Positions 1,558 through 63,980 of a stretch of DNA of 64,000 bases are shown here, piece by piece. This DNA comes from an uncultured cyanobacterium. Its GTDB lineage: Bacteria > Cyanobacteriota > Cyanobacteriia > CAKZMO01. The translations under genes and the position numbers were made by a program. The DNA lies in assembly GCA_963719515.1 (NCBI GenBank), contig CAVRCJ010000014.1, forward strand, positions 215,457-279,456, read 5' to 3'. Numbering within the stretch: the first letter of the stretch is position 1; every line of letters begins with the position of its first letter. The notes under the pieces are model-generated. The model was not told the DNA's origin and did no database searches. It was given only the letters and a program-made list of their open reading frames with translations.

Positions 1558-1842
1558 TTAGCGCAGGGACCGCTGCCGGTCGAGGTAGCTGAACACTTTG
1601 CCTAGCTCGGGCCTGAGGGTGATGCCTCTCTCGGTGATGGCCATCAGCTTGGTCCAGTGGATTTGCTCTGAGTAGTTGAGCACGTGCAGCATGTGAATCG
1701 TTTCGCGGACGCCTGCGGGGGAGCCGATGACGATGTGACGAACGCGCTCGTTGTCGGGGCCGGTGGCTTCGGGGTTGGCCAGCAGGATGGGTGCCGCCTC
1801 GCTGCTGGGGCGAGACGACTGGAGGTGAGTTGTTGCGGTCAT
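1558..1842 (-). CDS. Small hypothetical protein (94 aa), homologous to 60641-60988
   Basis: ATG at 1842 preceded by AAGGAACCCAAA; motif RHIVIGSPAGVRETIHMLHVLNY..IHW shared with the 60641-60988 product. Confidence 0.7.
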   Translation of the reverse strand: MTATTHLQSSRPSSEAAPILLANPEATGPDNERVRHIVIGSPAGVRETIHMLHVLNYSEQIHWTKLMAITERGITLRPELGKVFSYLDRQRSLR

Positions 1843-1843
1843 T

Positions 1844-2008
1844 TTGGGTTCCTTTTTGATGTGGATGGGTAGGAAACCCAAGGACTTGGCCATCCCTTCG
1901 ACTTTGGGTGTTCGGGATGGCCGTGGGACAATGCCCATAGCGCCCGGACAGGTTACTTCTGTCTTGGGGGTCAGGCGGCGATCGTCGCGGTTATCGGCGA
2001 TCGCTGCC
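1844..2008. ncRNA. Five-hairpin structured leader with candidate + strand sRNA (about 1939-2010)
   Basis: Stems 1844-53/1871-81, 1888-96/1914-22, 1924-37, 1943-51/1959-68, 1974-87/1995-2008; same order as at 60989-61158. Confidence 0.5.
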
Positions 2009-2062
2009 GTTTATGACCAAATTCTTGGGAGCCAAGCTGCGGGATGCAGCTCTCAGGCATAG

Positions 2063-2091
2063 ACTCTACACTATTGGCGATGAGAGGGCAA
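2063..2091 (-). promoter_or_regulatory. Candidate sigma70 promoter for the 1558-1842 gene
   Basis: Minus strand TTGCCC-N17-TAGAGT. Confidence 0.4.
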
Positions 2092-2440: not shown

Positions 2441-3790
2441 ATGGCACAAGTATTTGAAACTATAAACAACAACACAGTCGCCACAGCAACCCCGCTAGGC
2501 AACATCCGCAATAATCCGTTTGTTCGAGGATCTTTACCAAGCAACGATGCGGCTGATTTTTTCAAGTTTCAGGTTGATCGCCCGACTAAAGGTGGTGTGA
2601 CCGTTGTGCCCGATGGCCTCAACGTTAATCTAAGCCTGTTAAATGGCAAATTTGAAACGATTAGAACTTCTCTGAATCCCGGTACGGCTGCAGAATCAAT
2701 CTCATTTGAAAATCTGCCGGCAGATGACTATACCTTGCTGGTTAGTAAAGTGGGTGGTGTTGGCAGCGGTAATTATTTTCTGAGCGGGGGTGGTTCTGCG
2801 GTCACTCGGGCCCAATTGAGCGTAACGGTCGATCGGATTAAAGCACTCGAACGCTTTGATTCGCCTGTTCCATTTACGAGATTTGGCGAGGCTGATTTTT
2901 TCATTGAGGTCAACCGCTTTCCCGCCTCTGTGAAGAGCAAAGTCTTTAAAGACAGAAATGATGTCAGACCCAACTTCGTTGGCACTATAGAGGTCGGAAC
3001 CAATCCGTTTGCGAGTGCTACTCTCAGCGCTACTGATCGCGATAGCAGAGTTGATTTTGACGACAGAGCTGACTTGCACCCTATCAGAAATACAAACCAG
3101 CTAAACATTGGATTTGACCCGCTTAAAAACGAAATTAGATCCTTAGATGGGGCATTTGGGCCGCGAAAAGAGAACGCAGTGATTACGGTTCAAGGAGACG
3201 GGGGAGACAGAAATGAACGGGGTTCACTAGGCTTTCACAAAGCAAGAGTCTCTTTCCGCGTCAATTACGACAGCTTTACCTCATCTGTCCCTAGCTTCAA
3301 CAATCGCACACCGATCACAGTTGGCAACAACCGAGGGCAGTTCTTTCGGGGCAGAAGCATTCGCGGGATTATTGACGGCAGGGGCGGTAGAGACGATATC
3401 TCTGGCATGGGTGGCGATGATGTGTTGATTGGCGGCGGCGGCAACGACAAGCTGAATGGAAACACTGGCAAAGATCTGATTTGGGGCGGGCTAGGCCGCG
3501 ATATTCAAACAGGTGGAGCAGGTCGCGACATCTTCGTGCTGGATCTGGGTAAAGGCGTGGATGTGATCAAAGACTTCCAAGATGGCAGAGACAAGCTGGG
3601 TCTGTATGGCGGATTGACCTCTGAGGCTCTAGAAATTACAAGGGAAGGTCGCAACGTCGGCATTTCTGCTGGATCTGACAAGCTAGCTATACTGAAAGAT
3701 CTGCGCCCCAATCAAATCACAGCAGCAGATTTTGTCCAGGTTGACTTCACTCAATTCAAGGGCATTACGACCCCCTACGCCGTTGTCTAG
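2441..3790 (+). CDS. Secreted RTX-type calcium-binding protein with N-terminal PPC-like domain
   Basis: AAGGAG RBS; N-terminal D..DFFKF...NPGTAAESI; GGxGxD nonapeptide repeats; C-terminal [17 protein letters not shown]. Confidence 0.8.
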
Positions 3791-4294: not shown

Positions 4295-7200
4295 CTACGC
4301 CGTCTGCCGCTTAATCAACTGCGCAAACAGCCCCTCCTGTGCCGCCAGCTCATCAAAGCTCCCCTGCTGCACCACTCGCCCCCCCTCCAGCACATAGATG
4401 CGGTCCGCATTGCGAATCGTGCTCAGCCGGTGGGCAATCACAATTCGCGTCACCTGCAGCGCGTCCAAACTCCGGCTGACGATCGCCTGCGTTCGATTAT
4501 CCAAAGCGCTCGTCGCCTCATCCATCAGCAAAATGCGCGGCTCCAGCGCTAAAGAGCGGGCAATCATCAGCCGCTGCCGCTGCCCCCCAGAGAGGTTTCC
4601 CCCCCCTTCGCTAATCACCGTATGCAATCCCATGGGCATGTCTTTCACATCCTCCGCCAGCCCGCTCATCTCCGCCGCTTGCCAGGCGTCGTCCATGGTA
4701 ATCAGCGCCCCGGTGGAAATATTCTCAAACAGCGTCCCCGCGCTGATGCGCCCATTTTGCAGCACCACCCCCAGCTGCCGCCGCACCGCTGTCACGTCTA
4801 GGCCACAGAGATCCTGCCCGTCATAGTACACCGTGCCGGACTGGGGCTCTTCAAAGCCCAACAGCAGGCGAAACGCCGTAGACTTTCCAGAGCCAGAGGG
4901 GCCCACTAAGGCAATAAACTCCCCCGGCTCAGCCTCCACCGAAACGTCATCTAAGATCAGCGGACCGTCCTCCCGGTAGCGAAAGGTGACGTGGTCTAAG
5001 GCCACTCGCCCCTGGAGCTTGCCGGGGTCAGCCATGTAGGGGTTGACCTCGGGCTCGGCGCTGAGGATAGGCCGCGATCGCTGCCACAGGGGAATGATGT
5101 CGAGAATGTCGATGACGCTGTTGCTGAGGCTGACCGTGCCGCTGATGAAGGTGCCGTAGGCCACGCTAAAGGCCAAGAAAATGCCGGTGGATAGCCCGCC
5201 GTCGTCCACTAACCCGCTGGCCAGCCAAAACAGCAGTACGGTAGTGACCACCGGCAGCATCGTGTTCACCACATCTACCCCGTCCTCCAGCCGCTGGGTG
5301 CTCAGCAGCAGGCGCAGCTGCTGCCGGTACTTTTCTCCCCAATGGGCAAAGGCCCGGGCTTCCGCCCCCGCCAGCCGCAGCTTGGGCACGCCGTTAATCA
5401 GCTGCACCACCAAACCGTTCAGCTCTCCAGCGATCTCCATCTGCGGGCGGTGCTTGCGAATCAGCAGCGCCCCGGTCACCGTGGTGAACAGCACAACCAC
5501 CAAAGCCACCCCCAGCGCCAGCAGCGCCAGCAGTGGGCTGTAGTAGAGCAGTAGCCCTAGGTTGAGCAGGGCAAACACCCCCGAAAAAATCGACTGCAGC
5601 GCCGTATCGCTCAGCTGTCGTCGAATTGCGCCCACCGCCGACACCCGACTGCTCAAGTCACCCGTAGGGTACTGGCGGAAGAAGGTTGTCCTGAGGCGCA
5701 GCAGCCGATCCCAGACGGCGGCCTGCAGCGAGGCATCGGATACGGTTTCTACCCGCATAGACGCAACGGCTTGGGCAAAGTGAAAGCTGGCCACCCCAAA
5801 AGCGGCGGCAATCAGACCGATGCCGATTTGGCCAATCATCGCTCGGTTGCCGTAGGGAATGGCGTCGTCGATGAGCAGCGCCGTGGCCTGGGGCACCAGC
5901 ATGCCGATCAGGGTAGCGACCCCGCCGGTAATCACCACGGCCACGACGTCCCGCTGACGGTTCTTTAGGGCAAACTGCATCAGGCTCAGGGCATTGAGGT
6001 TTTCTGGCAGCGGGCGGTAGAACATGTAGGCAGCTGGCTCTAGGGTCTGAGCGATCGCCTTCGTCACGGGCTGGCGCGTGGTGGAGAAGTTGGGGTCGGC
6101 TGGTTCGCTCTGGTTGTCTGGCCCCGGCGCAGATAATTTGCCCAGCGTGGCTAGCTTGGGCGCATGGCCCTCATCCGCTGCCAGCCCTTGCTCTACGGGG
6201 TCAAGGATTTCGTAACGCGCGCCTCGCTGTCGGGAGGGCAGCAGCGCCACAGGCCGGTGGCCCTCACCATAGGCCAAAAGCGGATCGCCGTCCCGCTGCC
6301 ACCAGTCCCCCCGCAGCAGCACCCGCCGCAGCCGCAGCTGCGAGGCTCGGGCGATCGCCTCTAGGGGTTCTTTGAGTCGGGATAGATCCTCTGCGCTAGA
6401 AGGGCCCTGAACGGATACCCCCATGGCCCGGCCCACCGCTCCCGCCGCCACCAGCAGCGCCGAGTCGGTCTGCAGCCAGCGGTCGTCCTCGGGGGTGAGC
6501 ACCGCTGAGAGGTTGCGCAGCGTTGCTTCGGTGGTCCGCTGATCTAGCGCCTGTCGCTGCTGAAACTGGCGGCGATCTAGCAGGTGTCTGCGGGCCGTCG
6601 TCTGCCGCAGATGGTCCATGACGTAGTGGTGCAGCTGCTCTAGCCCATAGATAATAATTATGGGATGCCGCACTTGGGCCGTAGGGCGGGCAAATAGATC
6701 TACCCCCTCCCGCGCTGTAGCCCAGGTTCCGGGGCCGAGGGGAAAGCAGCCGGTTTTCGGGACTACCGGAAAGGGCGATCGCCCCAGCCAGTCGACCCGC
6801 CCCTGCTGCACCTTGATCCACAGCACTTGGCCAGGCTGGGGACGCAGGGGGTCACCGTTTGAGAGCGACAGGTAGTTTTGAGCGGTGCCTCTCCCTTCCG
6901 GCGGCGCGGGCAGGCTATCGATTTGGTTGAGCTTTAGAACCCAGGGGTCAATGCGGGCTTTTAGCTCGGCAAAAGGCATCACCCTACCACAGCCAGCGTT
7001 ATCAGGGCCCGCGGCATCGGGGCCCGTGGCATCAGGGCCAGTGGCATCAGGGCCAGTGTTATCAGGGCCAGTGGCAAGGTCAGCAGAGAGCTTTACCGGC
7101 GTTACGACCGCCGGCTCTGAGGGCACCGCCAGCAGCGCTAGCTGAGGCGTTTCAGCCTCGATGGAATGGCTAAATAAGGTCTCATCAGGGCCAACCGAGA

Positions 7201-7393
7201 AGAGATAGTGGCGCGGCCCTTGGGGCACCCCGCGCAAAATCTCCACCGCGAATACCGAGACCCGCCCCGAACGTACGATCCAGGCGTAATCAGGGTCCGT
7301 CAGCATTAGGGGCTCATGGCCTGTAATGTGGCGATCGCCGGAGACCGCCCCTTTCCTTTTAAGGTCGTTGAGTGGAGTAGGTGTCGTAGCCAT
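4295..7393 (-). CDS. NHLM bacteriocin system ABC transporter, permease/ATP-binding protein
   Basis: cNMP-like N-terminus, EAIARAS.LR.R.V.L.GDWW motif, TM domain, GPSGSGKS, LSGGQRQRL, DEATSALD. Confidence 0.9.
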   Translation of the reverse strand: MATTPTPLNDLKRKGAVSGDRHITGHEPLMLTDPDYAWIVRSGRVSVFAVEILRGVPQGPRHYLFSVGPDETLFSHSIEAETPQLALLAVPSEPAVVTPVKLSADLATGPDNTGPDATGPDATGPDAAGPDNAGCGRVMPFAELKARIDPWVLKLNQIDSLPAPPEGRGTAQNYLSLSNGDPLRPQPGQVLWIKVQQGRVDWLGRSPFPVVPKTGCFPLGPGTWATAREGVDLFARPTAQVRHPIIIIYGLEQLHHYVMDHLRQTTARRHLLDRRQFQQRQALDQRTTEATLRNLSAVLTPEDDRWLQTDSALLVAAGAVGRAMGVSVQGPSSAEDLSRLKEPLEAIARASQLRLRRVLLRGDWWQRDGDPLLAYGEGHRPVALLPSRQRGARYEILDPVEQGLAADEGHAPKLATLGKLSAPGPDNQSEPADPNFSTTRQPVTKAIAQTLEPAAYMFYRPLPENLNALSLMQFALKNRQRDVVAVVITGGVATLIGMLVPQATALLIDDAIPYGNRAMIGQIGIGLIAAAFGVASFHFAQAVASMRVETVSDASLQAAVWDRLLRLRTTFFRQYPTGDLSSRVSAVGAIRRQLSDTALQSIFSGVFALLNLGLLLYYSPLLALLALGVALVVVLFTTVTGALLIRKHRPQMEIAGELNGLVVQLINGVPKLRLAGAEARAFAHWGEKYRQQLRLLLSTQRLEDGVDVVNTMLPVVTTVLLFWLASGLVDDGGLSTGIFLAFSVAYGTFISGTVSLSNSVIDILDIIPLWQRSRPILSAEPEVNPYMADPGKLQGRVALDHVTFRYREDGPLILDDVSVEAEPGEFIALVGPSGSGKSTAFRLLLGFEEPQSGTVYYDGQDLCGLDVTAVRRQLGVVLQNGRISAGTLFENISTGALITMDDAWQAAEMSGLAEDVKDMPMGLHTVISEGGGNLSGGQRQRLMIARSLALEPRILLMDEATSALDNRTQAIVSRSLDALQVTRIVIAHRLSTIRNADRIYVLEGGRVVQQGSFDELAAQEGLFAQLIKRQTA

Positions 7394-58914: not shown

Positions 58915-59976
58915 ATGACAACTACCCTACAGCAGCGCTCTAGCGCTAACGTATGGCAGCAGTTCTGCGAGTGGGTCACCAGCACCAACAACCGCCTCTA
59001 CGTAGGCTGGTTCGGCGTCCTGATGATTCCGACTCTCTTAGCTGCCACCACCTGCTTCCTCATCGCCTTCGTCGCGGCTCCTCCTGTGGACATCGACGGC
59101 ATCCGCGAGCCCGTTGCAGGTTCACTGATGTACGGCAACAACATCATCTCTGGTGCAATTGTTCCGTCATCCAACGCAATTGGTCTACACTTCTACCCCA
59201 TCTGGGAAGCAGCGTCTCTTGACGAGTGGCTGTACAACGGCGGACCTTACCAGCTGGTGGTATTCCACTTCCTGATTGGCGTCTTCTGCTACATGGGCCG
59301 CGAGTGGGAACTATCCTACCGTCTGGGCATGCGCCCCTGGATTTGCGTTGCCTACTCTGCACCTGTTGCAGCAGCATCCGCAGTCTTCCTCATCTACCCC
59401 ATCGGACAGGGTTCATTCTCTGACGGCATGCCATTGGGCATCTCGGGTACGTTCAACTTCATGTTTGTGTTCCAGGCAGAGCACAACATCCTGATGCACC
59501 CCTTCCACATGCTGGGTGTGGCAGGCGTCTTCGGCGGCGCGCTGTTCAGCGCCATGCACGGTTCACTAGTGACCTCTTCATTGGTGCGTGAGACGACTGA
59601 GAGCGAGAGCCAGAACTACGGCTACAAGTTCGGGCAAGAAGAAGAGACCTACAACATCGTTGCAGCGCACGGCTACTTCGGCCGCCTCATCTTCCAATAC
59701 GCATCGTTCAACAACTCCCGCGCACTGCACTTCTTCTTGGGTGCATGGCCTGTAGTAGGCATCTGGTTCACGGCGCTGGGCATCAGCACGATGGCGTTCA
59801 ACCTGAACGGGTTCAACTTCAACCAGTCTGTGCTAGACAGCCAGGGCCGGGTCATCAACACCTGGGCGGACATCATCAACCGCGCCAACCTGGGTATGGA
59901 AGTGATGCACGAGCGCAACGCTCACAACTTCCCGCTTGACCTTGCTGCTGCTGAGGCACCTGCCATCAACGGCTAG
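58915..59976 (+). CDS. psbA: Photosystem II D1 protein, 353 aa, Glu130 form
   Basis: Full D1 sequence: [31 protein letters not shown]. Confidence 0.99.
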
Positions 59977-60640: not shown

Positions 60641-60988
60641 CTATTGCTGAGGCAGGCGGATGCGCTTGGTGAGAATGCGCATAACGTCGGTGGGGGTGAG
60701 ACCCTGGAGGATCCCGCTGTTGCCTGCTAGAGGAATAGCGGCGGACCATTCGCTGGGGTGGGCGTAGCCGAGCTTGTGCAGGGCGTCGCGGCAGTTGTTG
60801 ACGGCATACAGGGAGCCGATAGCGAGCAGCCGCAGGGTGTGGTAGCCGGTTTCGCTATGGTCGCCGATTTGGTAGTCGCCGGTTTGGGGGTTGATGCCGA
60901 GGTCGTAGCTATCCCAGCTATCCTGGGCGGGATTGGCCACGGTGAGGCTGTGGTCAGCGATGGGCTGGCCGGAGAGGTCGTATGTCAT
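60641..60988 (-). CDS. Small hypothetical protein (115 aa), homologous to 1558-1842
   Basis: AGGAG RBS; LRLLAIGSLYAVNNCRDALHKLGYAHPSEWS..IP...VMRILTKR. Confidence 0.75.
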   Translation of the reverse strand: MTYDLSGQPIADHSLTVANPAQDSWDSYDLGINPQTGDYQIGDHSETGYHTLRLLAIGSLYAVNNCRDALHKLGYAHPSEWSAAIPLAGNSGILQGLTPTDVMRILTKRIRLPQQ

Positions 60989-61158
60989 TTTGGGGTTGTC
61001 TCCTAGATTTGCTTTTGAAGTAGGAAAGACAACCCAAACGCTCAGCCACCCCGCAAATTAAGGCGAGGTGGCTAGTCTGGGATAAAATCCCATTAGCTCT
61101 CGCTGGTCTGCTCAGCGGGGGTTAGCCGTCTGGAAGTGGTAGGACACGACCAGGCGGC
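60989..61158. ncRNA. Five-hairpin structured leader with candidate + strand sRNA (about 61094-61165)
   Basis: Stems 60989-61005/61021-38, 61044-54/61063-73, 61078-92, 61094-105/61113-124, 61125-33/61150-58. Confidence 0.55.
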
Positions 61159-61290
61159 GCGGCTAAATATTTGGGTGTCGGAATCTGGACGCGGTGTGAT
61201 TTGCGTCCATGGCTTGGTATGGTAGCGGAGTTTTGGCTCTAGTGCAACCGTACGATGGAAAAATGTTTTTTGAGTAGACAGCCCATACGT

Positions 61291-61495: not shown

Positions 61496-61909
61496 TTACT
61501 GAACTTGGACAATGTCAAAAGTCCCTTTATTGTCAATACGATAAAACAGAAAATCTGAGTCAAGCGTGAGAATTTTCTGAAAACCTGTCCTCTCAGCTAC
61601 CAGCACCAACGACGCATCAGCCAAATCCATTGGCCGATCCTGATATTGCTCCATCAGCTCCAACAAACGACCATGATCGCCCTCTTCAACTTCGTAAACC
61701 ACCAACAGCTTATCTAAAAGCAGTTGCCCTATCTGTTTTTGCATCGCCCAACCGCCTCGATGAAGAGCCAAATACATCGCTTCTGTCAGGCAAGACCAAG
61801 TCGTAAGAAGCGGCGAAGCAAGCTGAACAACGGCATCTCTATACGATGTATGCTTTGGCTGGGTGCGGTCGACTAGGCAAAGCAAGACTCCTGCATCACA
61901 AAGAATCAC
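61496..61909 (-). CDS. PIN-domain toxin (VapC family)
   Basis: ILCDAG, TW.CLTEAMYL, Y.DRPMDLADASLV..AE, TLDSDF. Confidence 0.9.
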   Translation of the reverse strand: MILCDAGVLLCLVDRTQPKHTSYRDAVVQLASPLLTTWSCLTEAMYLALHRGGWAMQKQIGQLLLDKLLVVYEVEEGDHGRLLELMEQYQDRPMDLADASLVLVAERTGFQKILTLDSDFLFYRIDNKGTFDIVQVQ

Positions 61910-62166
61910 AGGTCCAGGCCCTGCTGCCGATACTTGGATAACAGGTGTTGCTGATAATTACGAACTGAGCGATTTGGAGTGACCTCTAGGTGGTCAACAG
62001 ACTCAAACCAGCTTGTCCATTTTTTGGCAAGTTCGTCCTGGTGATCATCAGAGAAAGTGCTGTGCCGACATCGAGATAGCAAAAGATCAATAAAATCGCT
62101 GACCTTCTGAAGGAGCGAGTCGGGCAACTGCTGCAATTTGGAAATGGCGTTTTCGCGAATTGTCAT
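61906..62166 (-). CDS. Putative antitoxin (DUF2281-like)
   Basis: KLQQLPDSLLQKVSDFIDLL; 4-bp overlap with the PIN gene. Confidence 0.65.
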   Translation of the reverse strand: MTIRENAISKLQQLPDSLLQKVSDFIDLLLSRCRHSTFSDDHQDELAKKWTSWFESVDHLEVTPNRSVRNYQQHLLSKYRQQGLDL

Positions 62167-62791
62167 AAGAGTAAGTCCCTCCAACATTCATCTCTGCCGC
62201 GTGCCCCTTAGCTCTTGAGGCATTACCTATCACCTCTAACATACGACCTCCCAGAGCAGCCGCTCCCCATGTTGCCGTTTGCTAGCGGCCTCAAACTCAA
62301 CATCAGTACTGTATTCGGCCAACTATTCGAGCAAATGACCTACCGCACCAGCCTCTCCACCTCGACGCTTACCGCCGGAAAGCTCACCGGGCGAATCGCC
62401 CCATTGGCCGTGACCTGCCGCGACTTATACCCCTCCCCCACCGGATCGCGAAAGACAGTCAGCTCCCGCGTCCTTAAGTTAACCACCCAATACTCCGCGA
62501 TCGCTGCCTGAGCATAAACCTTCGTCTTGAGCTGCAGATCCTTCTCCAAGCTCGTATCAGAATACTCAATCACCCAGAAGATATCCGCCACCCCCGGATG
62601 GCGCTCCGTCCTGTAAACCTCGCCCAAAGGTTTTACAACCGCAATATCAGGCTCCAGCTCCGAGTCATTCGGCAGCGTAATGGGCTTCGCCTCCCGAATT
62701 TTCACCCGCCCGCCTAGAAGCGCCCGTAGATAATCCGCCCCATCGCCACTTAACCCAGCATGGGCAATACCCTCCGAAACCCTCTCAATTA

Positions 62792-63980
62792 AGTAGGTAG
62801 GGCTAGAAAAGCTGAGCTATGCAACGGATTGTAAAGGGTCCAGTTTGGAGGGGAATCTAAAGCGCTGTGCTTCATATCCGCCCGCCTGCGCTCTGGCACC
62901 AATGCCATCGATGGCCGCATAGCAAAGATCTAATTCATCCTCGAACATCTGCCCTGCAAGTTCGTGCGCCTTGAGCTGATGCCACTCGCCCTCAATCGGA
63001 TTCATCTCGGAGCAATACTTGGGCAAGAAGAACAGATACAGTCCCTGTGATTCCCACTGGGCTCGTTTCTGCTGCACCTGCTTACAGGTATGGATTGGAG
63101 CATTGTCCTGCACAATCACTCTTATGCGTCCGGTTTTCTCCATCACCTTTTGGGCCTGGCGAGCCTGCTCGTCCATCACGGTGATGTAGCGCTGCGCGTC
63201 GAAACTACCAATCACTAAGGCATAGACAAACTTGATGCCTCCTTGGAGCAGCCCCAATATACTGACGCGTCTGCCCTTTCGCTTCGTTTGCTCTTGCCGC
63301 TTCTGCTCACCCCGGAAATAGTAGCTGTAACCTACGGGCATCCACTGGCAGAAACCAGACTCATCCGTGTAGAAAAGGTCAATATCCCCTGCCGCCGCTG
63401 CCCACTCCAGCATATCCAAGTCTGCTTGCTTCTTTGCCTTCTCCTCTGGGTCTTGCTTGTTGCGGTGAGAGTGGCGCGTCCTCTTCCATATCACCCCCTT
63501 TTTTCCAGTACCCGTCTGAGATGGTCTGCGCTCAACTGTACTCCTCGCTCTTCTGCTAGCTTTTGCGCTAGCTGGCGACTATTGTAGGTTCGTGGCTCTT
63601 CCCTCAGGCATGATTCTAGATGTTCCATATCCTCGTTCTGCCATCGCCGCTTGGCACCGGGGTGAGGGCCATCCCACAGCCCGCCTAACCCTCTCTCTTG
63701 CCACCGACGTAGCGTCTGGCGCACCGTTTGCACGTTCTGGCCAAAGTGAGCGGCTATCTTCTCCACGTACATCCCCTGATGGCTCAAACGAACCGCTTGG
63801 GCTCGGTCTTTGACTCTTTGAGGAACCGTCTTGGCTTTGCGCAGTTCAAATAAGGTGCGATCCTCTTCAGGATTGAGGAAGATACGTAAGCGTGCGCCCA
63901 TGACATGATGCCTCCCACTGACGATAGAGTTGTTCCTTCATAGAACTACATGTTGCTAAGCTTTTCAAGGCCGAACTACT
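62792..63980 (-). mobile_element. IS630-family element
   Basis: TIRs AGTAGGTAGGGCTAGAAAAGCT / AGCTTTTCAAGGCCGAACTACT; TA duplication at 62790-91 and 63981-82. Confidence 0.93.
62817..63901 (-). CDS. IS630 transposase in two ORFs (HTH 63491-63901, DDE 62817-63494), probable programmed frameshift
   Basis: DESGF, QDNAPIH, LPKYCSEMNPIE; AAAAAAGGGGG run at the ORF junction. Confidence 0.88.

Follow-up and report, generated by a model that had tools for sequence, protein, structure and literature searches.

Background

The subject of this study is a repeated module, consisting of a small gene, a structured leader and a predicted RNA from the opposite strand that overlaps the leader, which was found at two loci (A and B) in a 64,000-nucleotide (nt) stretch of an uncultured cyanobacterium of the lineage CAKZMO01 (GenBank assembly GCA_963719515.1, contig CAVRCJ010000014.1, positions 215,457 to 279,456 of the forward strand; hereafter the window). 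The closest described systems are antisense-controlled. SymE/SymR of Escherichia coli is a type I toxin-antitoxin pair whose toxin is soluble and about 113 amino acids (aa) long; a cis-antisense small RNA (sRNA) overlaps the 5' part of the mRNA, and control is exerted on translation and mRNA stability. The toxins of hok/sok and tisB/istR-1 are hydrophobic peptides of about 30-50 aa; their primary mRNAs are inert with a sequestered Shine-Dalgarno sequence (SD), long-range 5'-3' pairings set their activity, and the site bound by the antisense RNA is well upstream of the toxin SD. In CopA/CopT of plasmid R1, RNA I/RNA II of ColE1 and RNA-OUT of IS10, a stable hairpin antisense RNA is made from a promoter inside the target leader, and its specificity is borne by loops, changes in which give new, non-cross-reacting pairs.

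In silico, the module proved to combine a sense promoter, leader helices under strand-specific selection, an antisense -10 box and an open reading frame (ORF) under purifying selection. The reading favoured here, with a rough probability of 0.55, is that of a translationally locked mRNA that would be under the control of an sRNA of about 85-90 nt, cis-antisense and folded into two hairpins. Its logic (sequestered SD, long-range alternative pairing, cis-antisense hairpin RNA) would be that of type I toxin-antitoxin and plasmid antisense control, and the likeness to type I toxin-antitoxin systems appears to be one of logic only. As in SymE/SymR, the protein is a soluble one of about 100 aa and not a membrane peptide, and the predicted sRNA overlaps the 5' part of the mRNA. 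However, there is no sequence relation to the family proteins, the predicted sRNA lies about 100 nt upstream of the SD and not over it, and a seven-helix leader is present in about 75 copies per genome. Membership in the SymE/SymR family is contradicted by the absence of a Pfam family in 57 of 57 members and by a SymR score below the gathering threshold. The SD-locked mRNA, the long-range pairing and a predicted antisense RNA that binds upstream of the SD are also features of hok/sok and tisB/istR-1, from which the module differs in protein length (79-158 aa), in the lack of a hydrophobic segment, in a copy number higher by an order of magnitude and in the absence of an Rfam match at gathering score in the window. 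The hairpin antisense RNA with its promoter inside the leader would be that of the plasmid and IS10 systems, whose loop-borne specificity matches the fast P2 and P3 loops described below; the modules here are, in contrast, chromosomal, without link to a replicon or transposase, and would control a small protein.

Within the phylum, msoT1/msoA1 of Microcystis aeruginosa is a candidate antisense-controlled toxin locus that was called the first type I candidate, and ten loci were predicted in one Microcystis genome (PMC12390103). The passages of that report drawn on here describe no multi-helix leader and no large paralogous family; the present module is set apart from it by description, not by sequence (PMC12390103). 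Conserved RNA structures were recently sought in 202 cyanobacterial genomes in a screen that was, by the account used here, anchored on KEGG-annotated orthologue groups (PMC12873609); for that reason, it may have missed a leader of hypothetical proteins. No description of the module was found by full-text search of the literature within the terms used. Rfam 15 gave 0 matches at gathering score in the 64-kb window, and the leaders of seven loci gave two chance matches only at E ≤ 1, both in one locus. In one of these seven loci (L097, 1830-1902, + strand), a sub-threshold SymR match (29.5 bits, E 0.033; gathering score 61) was seen inside the family leader on the strand opposite to the gene, probably by chance.

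Organization of the loci and architecture of the leader

The earlier note on this DNA had described an ordered set of hairpins (H1 to H3, then two more) at both loci, preceded at locus A by a minus-strand promoter TTGCCC-N17-TAGAGT with a leader of about 215 nt. All of these elements were found in place, and promoter placement gave a locus A leader of about 214 nt. The genes lie on the minus strand, and the elements are given in the order of the transcribed leader.

Locus A
2086-2091, minus strand: -35 element TTGCCC of the sense promoter, N17 spacer to TAGAGT
2063-2068, minus strand: -10 element TAGAGT; by spacing, the mRNA would start near 2056
2029-2054, minus strand: P1 hairpin of the mRNA leader
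2017-2029, minus strand: 5' strand of P0, CCCAAGAAUUUGG, in long-range pairing with 1877-1889; read on the + strand, it is the U-rich tail after the antisense P2 hairpin
1969-2018, + strand: long P2 hairpin, a helix selected on the + (antisense) strand
1944-1967, + strand: P3 hairpin, GACAG-N7-CUGUC with flanks, selected on the + strand; 5' hairpin of the predicted sRNA
1939-2028, + strand: predicted cis-antisense sRNA of about 90 nt, with estimated ends; start set 7 nt after the -10-like box
1924-1937, minus strand: P4 hairpin (H3), TGGG..CCCA; its loop holds the antisense -10-like GACAAT at 1927-1932 (+ strand)
1888-1922, minus strand: P5 hairpin (H2), GCCATCCC/GGGATGGC, i.e., GGCCAUCCC...GGGAUGGCC
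1871-1889, minus strand: 3' strand of P0 (1877-1889), overlapping the anti-SD (1871-1881)
1840-1853, minus strand: SD AGGAACCCAA and start codon, sequestered in P6 (H1); SD 1844-1853 pairs with 1871-1881
1558-1842, minus strand: ORF of gene A, 94 aa, from the SD-linked ATG at 1842 (after AAGGAACCCAAA), not the upstream ATG at 1938

Locus B
60993-61247, minus strand: promoter and leader, with the element order of locus A
61242-61247, minus strand: -35 element
61219-61224, minus strand: -10 element
61187-61208, minus strand: P1
61161-61176, minus strand: 5' strand of P0
61125-61158, minus strand: P2
61102-61116, minus strand: P3
61095-61176, + strand: predicted cis-antisense sRNA, with the antisense -10 TAAAAT at 61083-61088 (+ strand)
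61079-61091, minus strand: P4
61045-61072, minus strand: P5
61032-61047, minus strand: 3' strand of P0
61023-61035, minus strand: anti-SD
60993-61003, minus strand: SD
60641-60988, minus strand: gene B, 115 aa, a B-type member of the protein family of gene A

Just upstream of the promoter region of locus A, three to four direct repeats of GAACGGTTGAG-like units were seen at 2255-2300.

Leaders of the family are about 215-235 nt long and contain seven helices, namely P1, P0, which closes a junction of P2-P5, and P6, which pairs the SD region. In 48 of 49 aligned leaders, P1 is preceded by a sense promoter of the form TTGnnn-N17/18-TAnnnT. Next on the gene strand come P1, a conserved CCCAARAWUUYGG, the long P2 with GGUC/GACC at its base, a linker rich in C, P3 (GACAG-N7-CUGUC), P4, whose loop is A/U-rich, and P5 (GCCAYCCC/GGGRUGGC); the 3' part after P5 consists of a CCAAR..UUUGGG stretch, a loop, the SD and the AUG. 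P0 is a helix of 12-16 bp between the stretches after P1 and after P5; it was partly recovered by RNAalifold and had a mean duplex energy of -17.0 kcal/mol for cognate against -13.6 kcal/mol for non-cognate strands. P6, in which the SD pairs with the sequence just after P5, covaries between subfamilies (e.g., GGGUUUUCU/AGAAAACCC, GGGGGACUCC/GGAGUCCCUC, UUGGGUUUCCU/AGGAACCCAA, GGGUUGUCUUUCC/GGAGACAACCC), with means of -15.8 kcal/mol for cognate and -10.8 kcal/mol for non-cognate duplexes, which bears out the translational lock that had been proposed. P0 and P6 overlap by at least 3 nt in 47 of the 49 leaders (mean 6.4) and are, having nucleotides in common, mutually exclusive alternatives. The elements of the earlier two-locus view thus stood; that view had included neither the long-range P0 that competes with P6 nor the scale of about 75 copies.

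In the 5' half of 37 aligned leaders, 87.4% of the cells assigned to helices were paired, compared to 76.1% in shuffles and 35-44% when the strands were slid. Changes on both sides were seen in 23 of 35 pairs (12 of 14 in P2, 6 of 11 in P1), a score reached by 0 of 500 shuffles. An alignment of the 58 upstream regions across the whole family had too many gaps to be folded. On a plain MAFFT alignment of full leaders, counts in fixed register gave 81.6% vs 78.3% for P0, 59.5% vs 68.2% for P5 and 73.6% vs 68.9% for P4; these counts are unreliable due to register shifts, and strand-neutral registers per sequence were used for these helices instead. Sequences beyond the -35 element and beyond the stop codon are unrelated between copies. 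No conserved 3' element or terminator was found, a hairpin with U-run within 110 nt being present in only 6 of 58 copies.

Copy number and coding status

Searches of the 5.28-Mb genome by tblastn with proteins A and B gave 49 and 26 places, respectively, which were merged into 74 family loci. A profile built from 57 paralogues yielded 78 matches in the genome and matched both A and B; the motif that had been noticed in these two proteins is real. An SD-linked ATG could be assigned for 58 loci. With a leader profile (nhmmer, 68 places), the leader was found directly upstream of 64 of the 74 family genes and as an orphan only four times, so that the recurrence of the arrangement, first proposed from two loci, is beyond chance. 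The ten family genes without a leader match are mostly divergent B-type copies or fragments. One orphan leader 5' half (G000:C1:181065-181205, + strand) lies about 840 nt upstream of a leaderless family gene (C1:182044); the two may be a module split by an insertion.

Among close paralogues (33 non-independent pairs), the difference rate was 0.110 at codon positions 1 and 2 and 0.289 at four-fold sites; the lower rate at the former identifies the ORF as a real coding sequence under purifying selection. The copies are old, with 40-60% protein identity between them, and a few are decayed by in-frame stops or fragmentation.

Strand-specific selection on the leader helices

A transition turns a Watson-Crick pair into G-U or A-C, and each of these becomes the other when the complementary strand is read; on the strand that is transcribed, it is the G-U that RNA selection retains. 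Helix registers in the 49 leaders were chosen with G-U and A-C scored equally, and the two kinds of pair were then counted on the gene strand:

P0: G-U 100, A-C 21
P1: G-U 63, A-C 39
P4: G-U 46, A-C 11
P2: G-U 58, A-C 113
P3: G-U 6, A-C 44

Restriction to the eight basal pairs, which removes spurious apical extensions, gave 22 G-U vs 3 A-C for P6 of the A-type, and A-C to G-U ratios of 24:5 (A-type) and 17:1 (B-type) for P3. By the same count, P5 was strand-neutral in the A-type (G-U 7, A-C 12) and favoured the sense strand in the B-type (11:1); P5 may act as an RNA helix or as a DNA inverted repeat upstream of the antisense promoter. In fixed register over the 37 leaders, the 14-bp stem of P2 was 96.7% paired on the antisense strand vs 87.3% on the sense strand (A-C 61, G-U 12), and P1 was 87.9% paired on the gene strand vs 74.0% on the other (G-U 59, A-C 7). 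When hairpins were folded individually, P1 folded better on the gene strand in 30 of 37 leaders and P2 on the opposite strand in 32 of 37.

The pattern extends to B-type leaders taken alone, with G-U to A-C ratios of 24:8 in P0, 10:0 in P4, 3:31 in P2 and 1:17 in P3, and to other genera. A covariance model of the leader 5' half (R1) aligned 58 matches in 98 loci, and the 48 distinct full-length rows (44 from other genomes, two B-type rows of this genome and two opposite-strand chance rows that were left in the count) had G-U to A-C ratios of 85:10 in P1, 8:73 in P2, 8:42 in outer P2 and 5:14 in P3. At the window loci, the + strand of the sRNA region folded to -45.4 kcal/mol (z -4.86) at locus A, compared to -33.2 kcal/mol for the complementary strand, and to -40.5 kcal/mol (z -4.55) at locus B, compared to -24.0 kcal/mol (z -2.25), i.e., an advantage of 12-16 kcal/mol for the strand that the earlier note had preferred for the last two stems.

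A mutational strand bias could not produce asymmetries of opposite sign inside a single 200-nt stretch. P2 and P3 are selected as helices on the strand opposite to the gene, in this genome as well as in other genera, and P0, P1, P4 and P6 on the gene strand; this is the pattern expected from the opposite-strand sRNA that had been supposed. The opposite signs in adjoining helices are also RNA signatures, and as such they tell against a repeat at the level of DNA, in which palindromes of a mobile-element remnant or of recombination sites would only resemble RNA helices. Such a repeat would account for the high copy number, the GCGATCGC palindromes in many P2 stems and the near-perfect inverted repeat of P5 with its little strand preference in the A-type. 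It does not agree with the unrelated flanks, with the lack of a consistent transposase or recombinase neighbour, or with the age of the copies and the purifying selection on them, and its probability is considered close to negligible.

The antisense -10 box and the predicted small RNA

An antisense TAnnnT was found in the P4 segment of 39 of the 49 leaders, compared to 0.25 of shuffles and to 15 of 49 on the gene strand, which agrees with the -10-like box first seen on the + strand. Nine of the ten exceptions, locus A included, read GAnAAT and the tenth TAATAAT. In other genomes, the box was present in 42 of 46 sixty-nt windows (0.41 of shuffles; 32 of 46 on the gene strand), and 33 of the 46 rows had it at offsets 11-17, as counted by hand. 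With fixed T, A and T and variable middle positions, the box appears to mirror a -10 hexamer.

An RNA started from this box would contain P3', a linker GGGGGUYAG, P2' and a tail GACCAAAUUUUUGGGG or variants of it, and P2 is likely its terminator hairpin. That this RNA pairs with the mRNA is predicted from the strand-specific wobble of P2 and P3, the conserved antisense -10 box and the folding energies; its production, its ends and the direction of its control we infer from sequence.

The same RNA could in principle be the main product of the locus, as a multicopy family of trans-acting or independent sRNAs whose overlap with the leader is incidental. In favour of this, the two hairpins with their G-rich linker are the best-folding part of the locus and are under strand-specific selection of their own. 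However, the RNA is tied to the family genes (64 gene-linked leaders vs 4 orphans, and no R1 match in 19 genomes that lack the protein), and its loops are its most variable parts, which fits a private pairing in cis better than a shared target in trans. An independent sRNA family is hence regarded as very improbable.

Divergence of the loops

Differences between close paralogues were not evenly spread over the leader. Rates over the 33 close pairs were as follows:

P2 loop: 0.61
P3 loop: 0.45
P1 loop: 0.40
Four-fold sites: 0.289
P5 loop: 0.16
P4: 0.10

In 15 disjoint pairs, 24 of 47 positions differed in the P2 loop and 18 of 36 in the P3 loop, compared to 223 of 690 four-fold sites, 3 of 48 positions in the P4 loop and 4 of 63 in the P5 loop. 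The test on disjoint pairs skipped six (P2) and eight (P3) of the 15 pairs because of unequal loop length, and Fisher p values against four-fold sites were 0.011 for the P2 loop and 0.044 for the P3 loop (uncorrected). The P2 and P3 loops thus evolve at least neutrally and nominally faster, and the P4 loop, with its -10 box, hardly changes. Private kissing-loop recognition would lead to such a pattern, although the excess is modest.

Loop conservation also bears on a leader that acts in sense only, in which the junction closed by P0 would bind a ligand or a protein, as in a riboswitch or in autoregulation, and choose between P0 and P6 with no antisense RNA involved. A four-way junction closed by P0 and overlapped by an SD sequestrator does resemble an aptamer with its expression platform, close paralogues differ little in their P5 and P4 loops, and P0, P1, P4 and P6 are selected on the gene strand. 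This explanation leaves unaccounted for the retention of A-C and avoidance of G-U in P2 and P3 in several genera and the exact opposite-strand TAnnnT in the P4 loop. Moreover, P2 and P3 loops that change at or above the neutral rate are unlike a shared ligand pocket, and no Rfam family was matched by the leader. It is considered unlikely, though less so than an independent sRNA.

Translational lock and proposed mechanism

Under the antisense reading, each unit would be autonomous and monocistronic, with a sigma-70-type promoter, a leader of about 215-235 nt and a gene that encodes a soluble protein (about 80-160 aa) of an undescribed family. The leader would toggle between a state with P0 formed, in which the SD is free, and a state with P6 formed, in which the SD is locked. 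From the -10 element in the P4 loop, the opposite strand would be transcribed into an sRNA of about 85-90 nt, consisting of the P3' hairpin, the G-rich linker, the P2' hairpin and the U-rich tail, and with full complementarity to the leader's 5' half, the P0 5' strand included. By pairing with P3, P2 and the P0 5' strand, this sRNA would take the latter away from P0 and push the leader to P6; the duplex would probably be cleaved. The anti-SD thus freed would lock the ribosome site, and translation would require that the sRNA be absent or outcompeted. Variable P2 and P3 loops would provide for private recognition between sRNA and mRNA in each of the about 75 paralogues.

The lock was examined by folding 39 leaders, ten of the 49 having been dropped as the anchor motif was not found. 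With P6 covering the SD, the mean SD-unpaired probability was 0.31. A purely thermodynamic switch was also considered and dropped, as blocking of the sRNA target left SD accessibility unchanged. In two B-type leaders (G000:C1:368174 and G000:C9:4049), the minimum free energy structure has one long helix in which SD and AUG pair with the P4 region and its antisense -10 box, in place of pairing with the usual anti-SD after P5.

Several observations weigh against the antisense reading. A search of sequencing runs turned up no RNA run for this DNA. At equilibrium, P6 forms in nearly all copies, and with the sRNA target blocked the SD-unpaired probability in the 39 leaders was 0.31 vs 0.29; any switch would hence need to be kinetic, i.e., co-transcriptional, or dependent on a factor. 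No recognizable -35 element was found for the antisense promoter, and a simple consensus scan for promoters and terminators called neither in either leader of the window. The tail after P2' is moderately U-rich (mean 4.2 T in 12 nt) and not a canonical terminator. In 32 of 37 A-type copies, P5 gave the better fold on the antisense strand, though its basal eight pairs are neutral, and P1 of the B-type leans the opposite way from the family as a whole (9:25 in 12 related sequences). The divergence of the P2 and P3 loops exceeds that of four-fold sites only modestly. Finally, paralogues are kin, and all counts across copies overstate their independence.

The encoded protein

The 57 members are 79-158 aa long, with a variable N-terminus and conserved C-terminal 60 residues that are predicted to fold. 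An AlphaFold model of protein A built with the 57 sequences had a mean predicted local distance difference test (pLDDT) score of 73.5; residues 1-23 were disordered, and residues 30-94 formed a confident beta-alpha-beta-beta domain. The model suggests a soluble protein, in agreement with the absence of a hydrophobic segment in 57 of 57 members (highest Kyte-Doolittle value in a 19-aa window 1.20, threshold 1.6). As first surmised, no named family could be assigned: Pfam had no family for any of the 57 members, NCBIfam no match for proteins A and B, and PADLOC and PHROGs matched 0 of 57 members each; together with the Rfam search, these comparisons revealed no system already described there. 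A profile search of the PDB had no match (best E 1.4), Foldseek no convincing fold match (best E 0.24), and in a wide fold comparison with VIA-align no row stood out (best Z 4.1). The ESM Atlas returned only unnamed cyanobacterial clusters. Among 1.84 billion library representatives, the matches comprised 707 clusters (50% identity) at E ≤ 0.001 and 190 at E ≤ 1e-10, all of small proteins. Names were found for four of ten clusters looked up, each "hypothetical protein", and the closest protein matches were named Elainellaceae. A family of precursors of ribosomally synthesized and post-translationally modified peptides of the Nif11/NHLP leader type was considered and rejected, given the lack of an NCBIfam match and an N-terminus that is the variable part, with the C-terminus conserved.

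Distribution and genomic neighbourhood

The protein family was detected in 22 of 41 related genomes (1 to 59 matches per genome) and, at E ≤ 1e-8, in 31 of 251 from the phylum at large. Hosts include Nodosilinea (among them N. nodulosa PCC 7104), Sphaerothrix (S. gracilis), Trichocoleus, Leptolyngbyaceae and metagenome-assembled genomes of Elainellaceae, usually with several copies. R1 matches were found in 10 of the 41 relatives, all among the 22 genomes with the protein and none among the 19 without, and leaders of like build were seen by eye in further genera. Some distant homologues have no leader. In two distant genomes (L091:922-1431 and L102:878-1378), the leaderless family gene follows, on its own strand, a conserved gene that encodes about 166-169 aa and has a C-terminal part resembling an XRE-type helix-turn-helix (by eye, not as a profile match), and at a third locus (L101) a divergent gene reads helix-turn-helix-like. 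To judge by sequence, these arrangements may be a protein-regulated version of the module.

No conserved partner gene was found at the 74 loci; the largest neighbour cluster occurs at 13 of them, without fixed position or strand. The commonest neighbours were CHAT-TPR (13 loci), ABC transporter (10), Uma2 (9), Roc-COR-LRR (8) and psbA (5) genes, and no transposase or recombinase was a consistent neighbour. Only one plasmid record carries a relative.

These data bear on whether the modules are a true type I toxin-antitoxin family, in which a growth-arresting toxin and an antisense antitoxin at about 75 loci would form addiction or defence modules. The translationally inert mRNA with sequestered SD that marks the class is present here in the form of P6, and the predicted antisense RNA fits its logic as well. 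Patchy and multicopy occurrence (22 of 41 relatives, 31 of 251 phylum genomes), autonomy of units that have no partner gene, the few decayed copies and the frequency of conflict-type neighbours (CHAT-TPR, Uma2 and Roc-COR at 13, 9 and 8 of 74 loci) point the same way. However, the neighbour families are themselves very large, and nearness to family loci may be due to chance. Furthermore, type I toxins are small hydrophobic membrane peptides, usually below 60 aa, unlike the proteins here, which are 79-158 aa long, soluble in the model and without a window at 1.6 in 57 of 57 members; no toxin model of PADLOC, Pfam or NCBIfam was matched, and plasmid carriage was limited to the single record. A true type I family is therefore possible yet doubtful.

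Several further genes of the window were recorded. A gene at 2441-3790 (+ strand) encodes a 449-aa protein with RTX calcium-binding repeats, relatives of which lie near four family loci. It adjoins a gene for a 1031-aa ABC transporter with a long N-terminal extension (4295-7393, minus strand), with relatives near ten family loci. At 5 of the 74 loci, a psbA-type gene (Photo_RC) is found on the opposite strand, about 470 nt away from the family gene's 3' end; locus B is one of these, with the window psbA at 58915-59976 (+ strand). At 61496-62187 (minus strand), two small ORFs of 137 and 93 aa overlap by four bases, a layout typical of type II toxin-antitoxin pairs, and overlapping ORFs of 136 and 225 aa at 62817-63901 (minus strand) look like a transposase split over two frames.

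Implications

Tentatively, and with a probability well below even, the modules may form the largest family yet of type-I-like sense/antisense circuits and the first that is widespread in cyanobacteria. Filamentous cyanobacteria would then hold dozens of insulated units per genome, with private kissing-loop addresses in the fast P2 and P3 loops on a conserved scaffold, each unit gating a soluble effector, be it a toxin or a switch of cell fate or defence.

If the antisense RNA is real, Rfam and Pfam lack both the RNA motif and the protein family that the module defines, and cyanobacteria, in which such systems are barely known by the account drawn on here (PMC12390103), would have in it a candidate for their first large antisense-controlled, type-I-like family. 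One genome would then operate about 75 parallel, mutually insulated switches on one scaffold, and the family would amount to a natural experiment in the diversification of RNA-RNA specificity.

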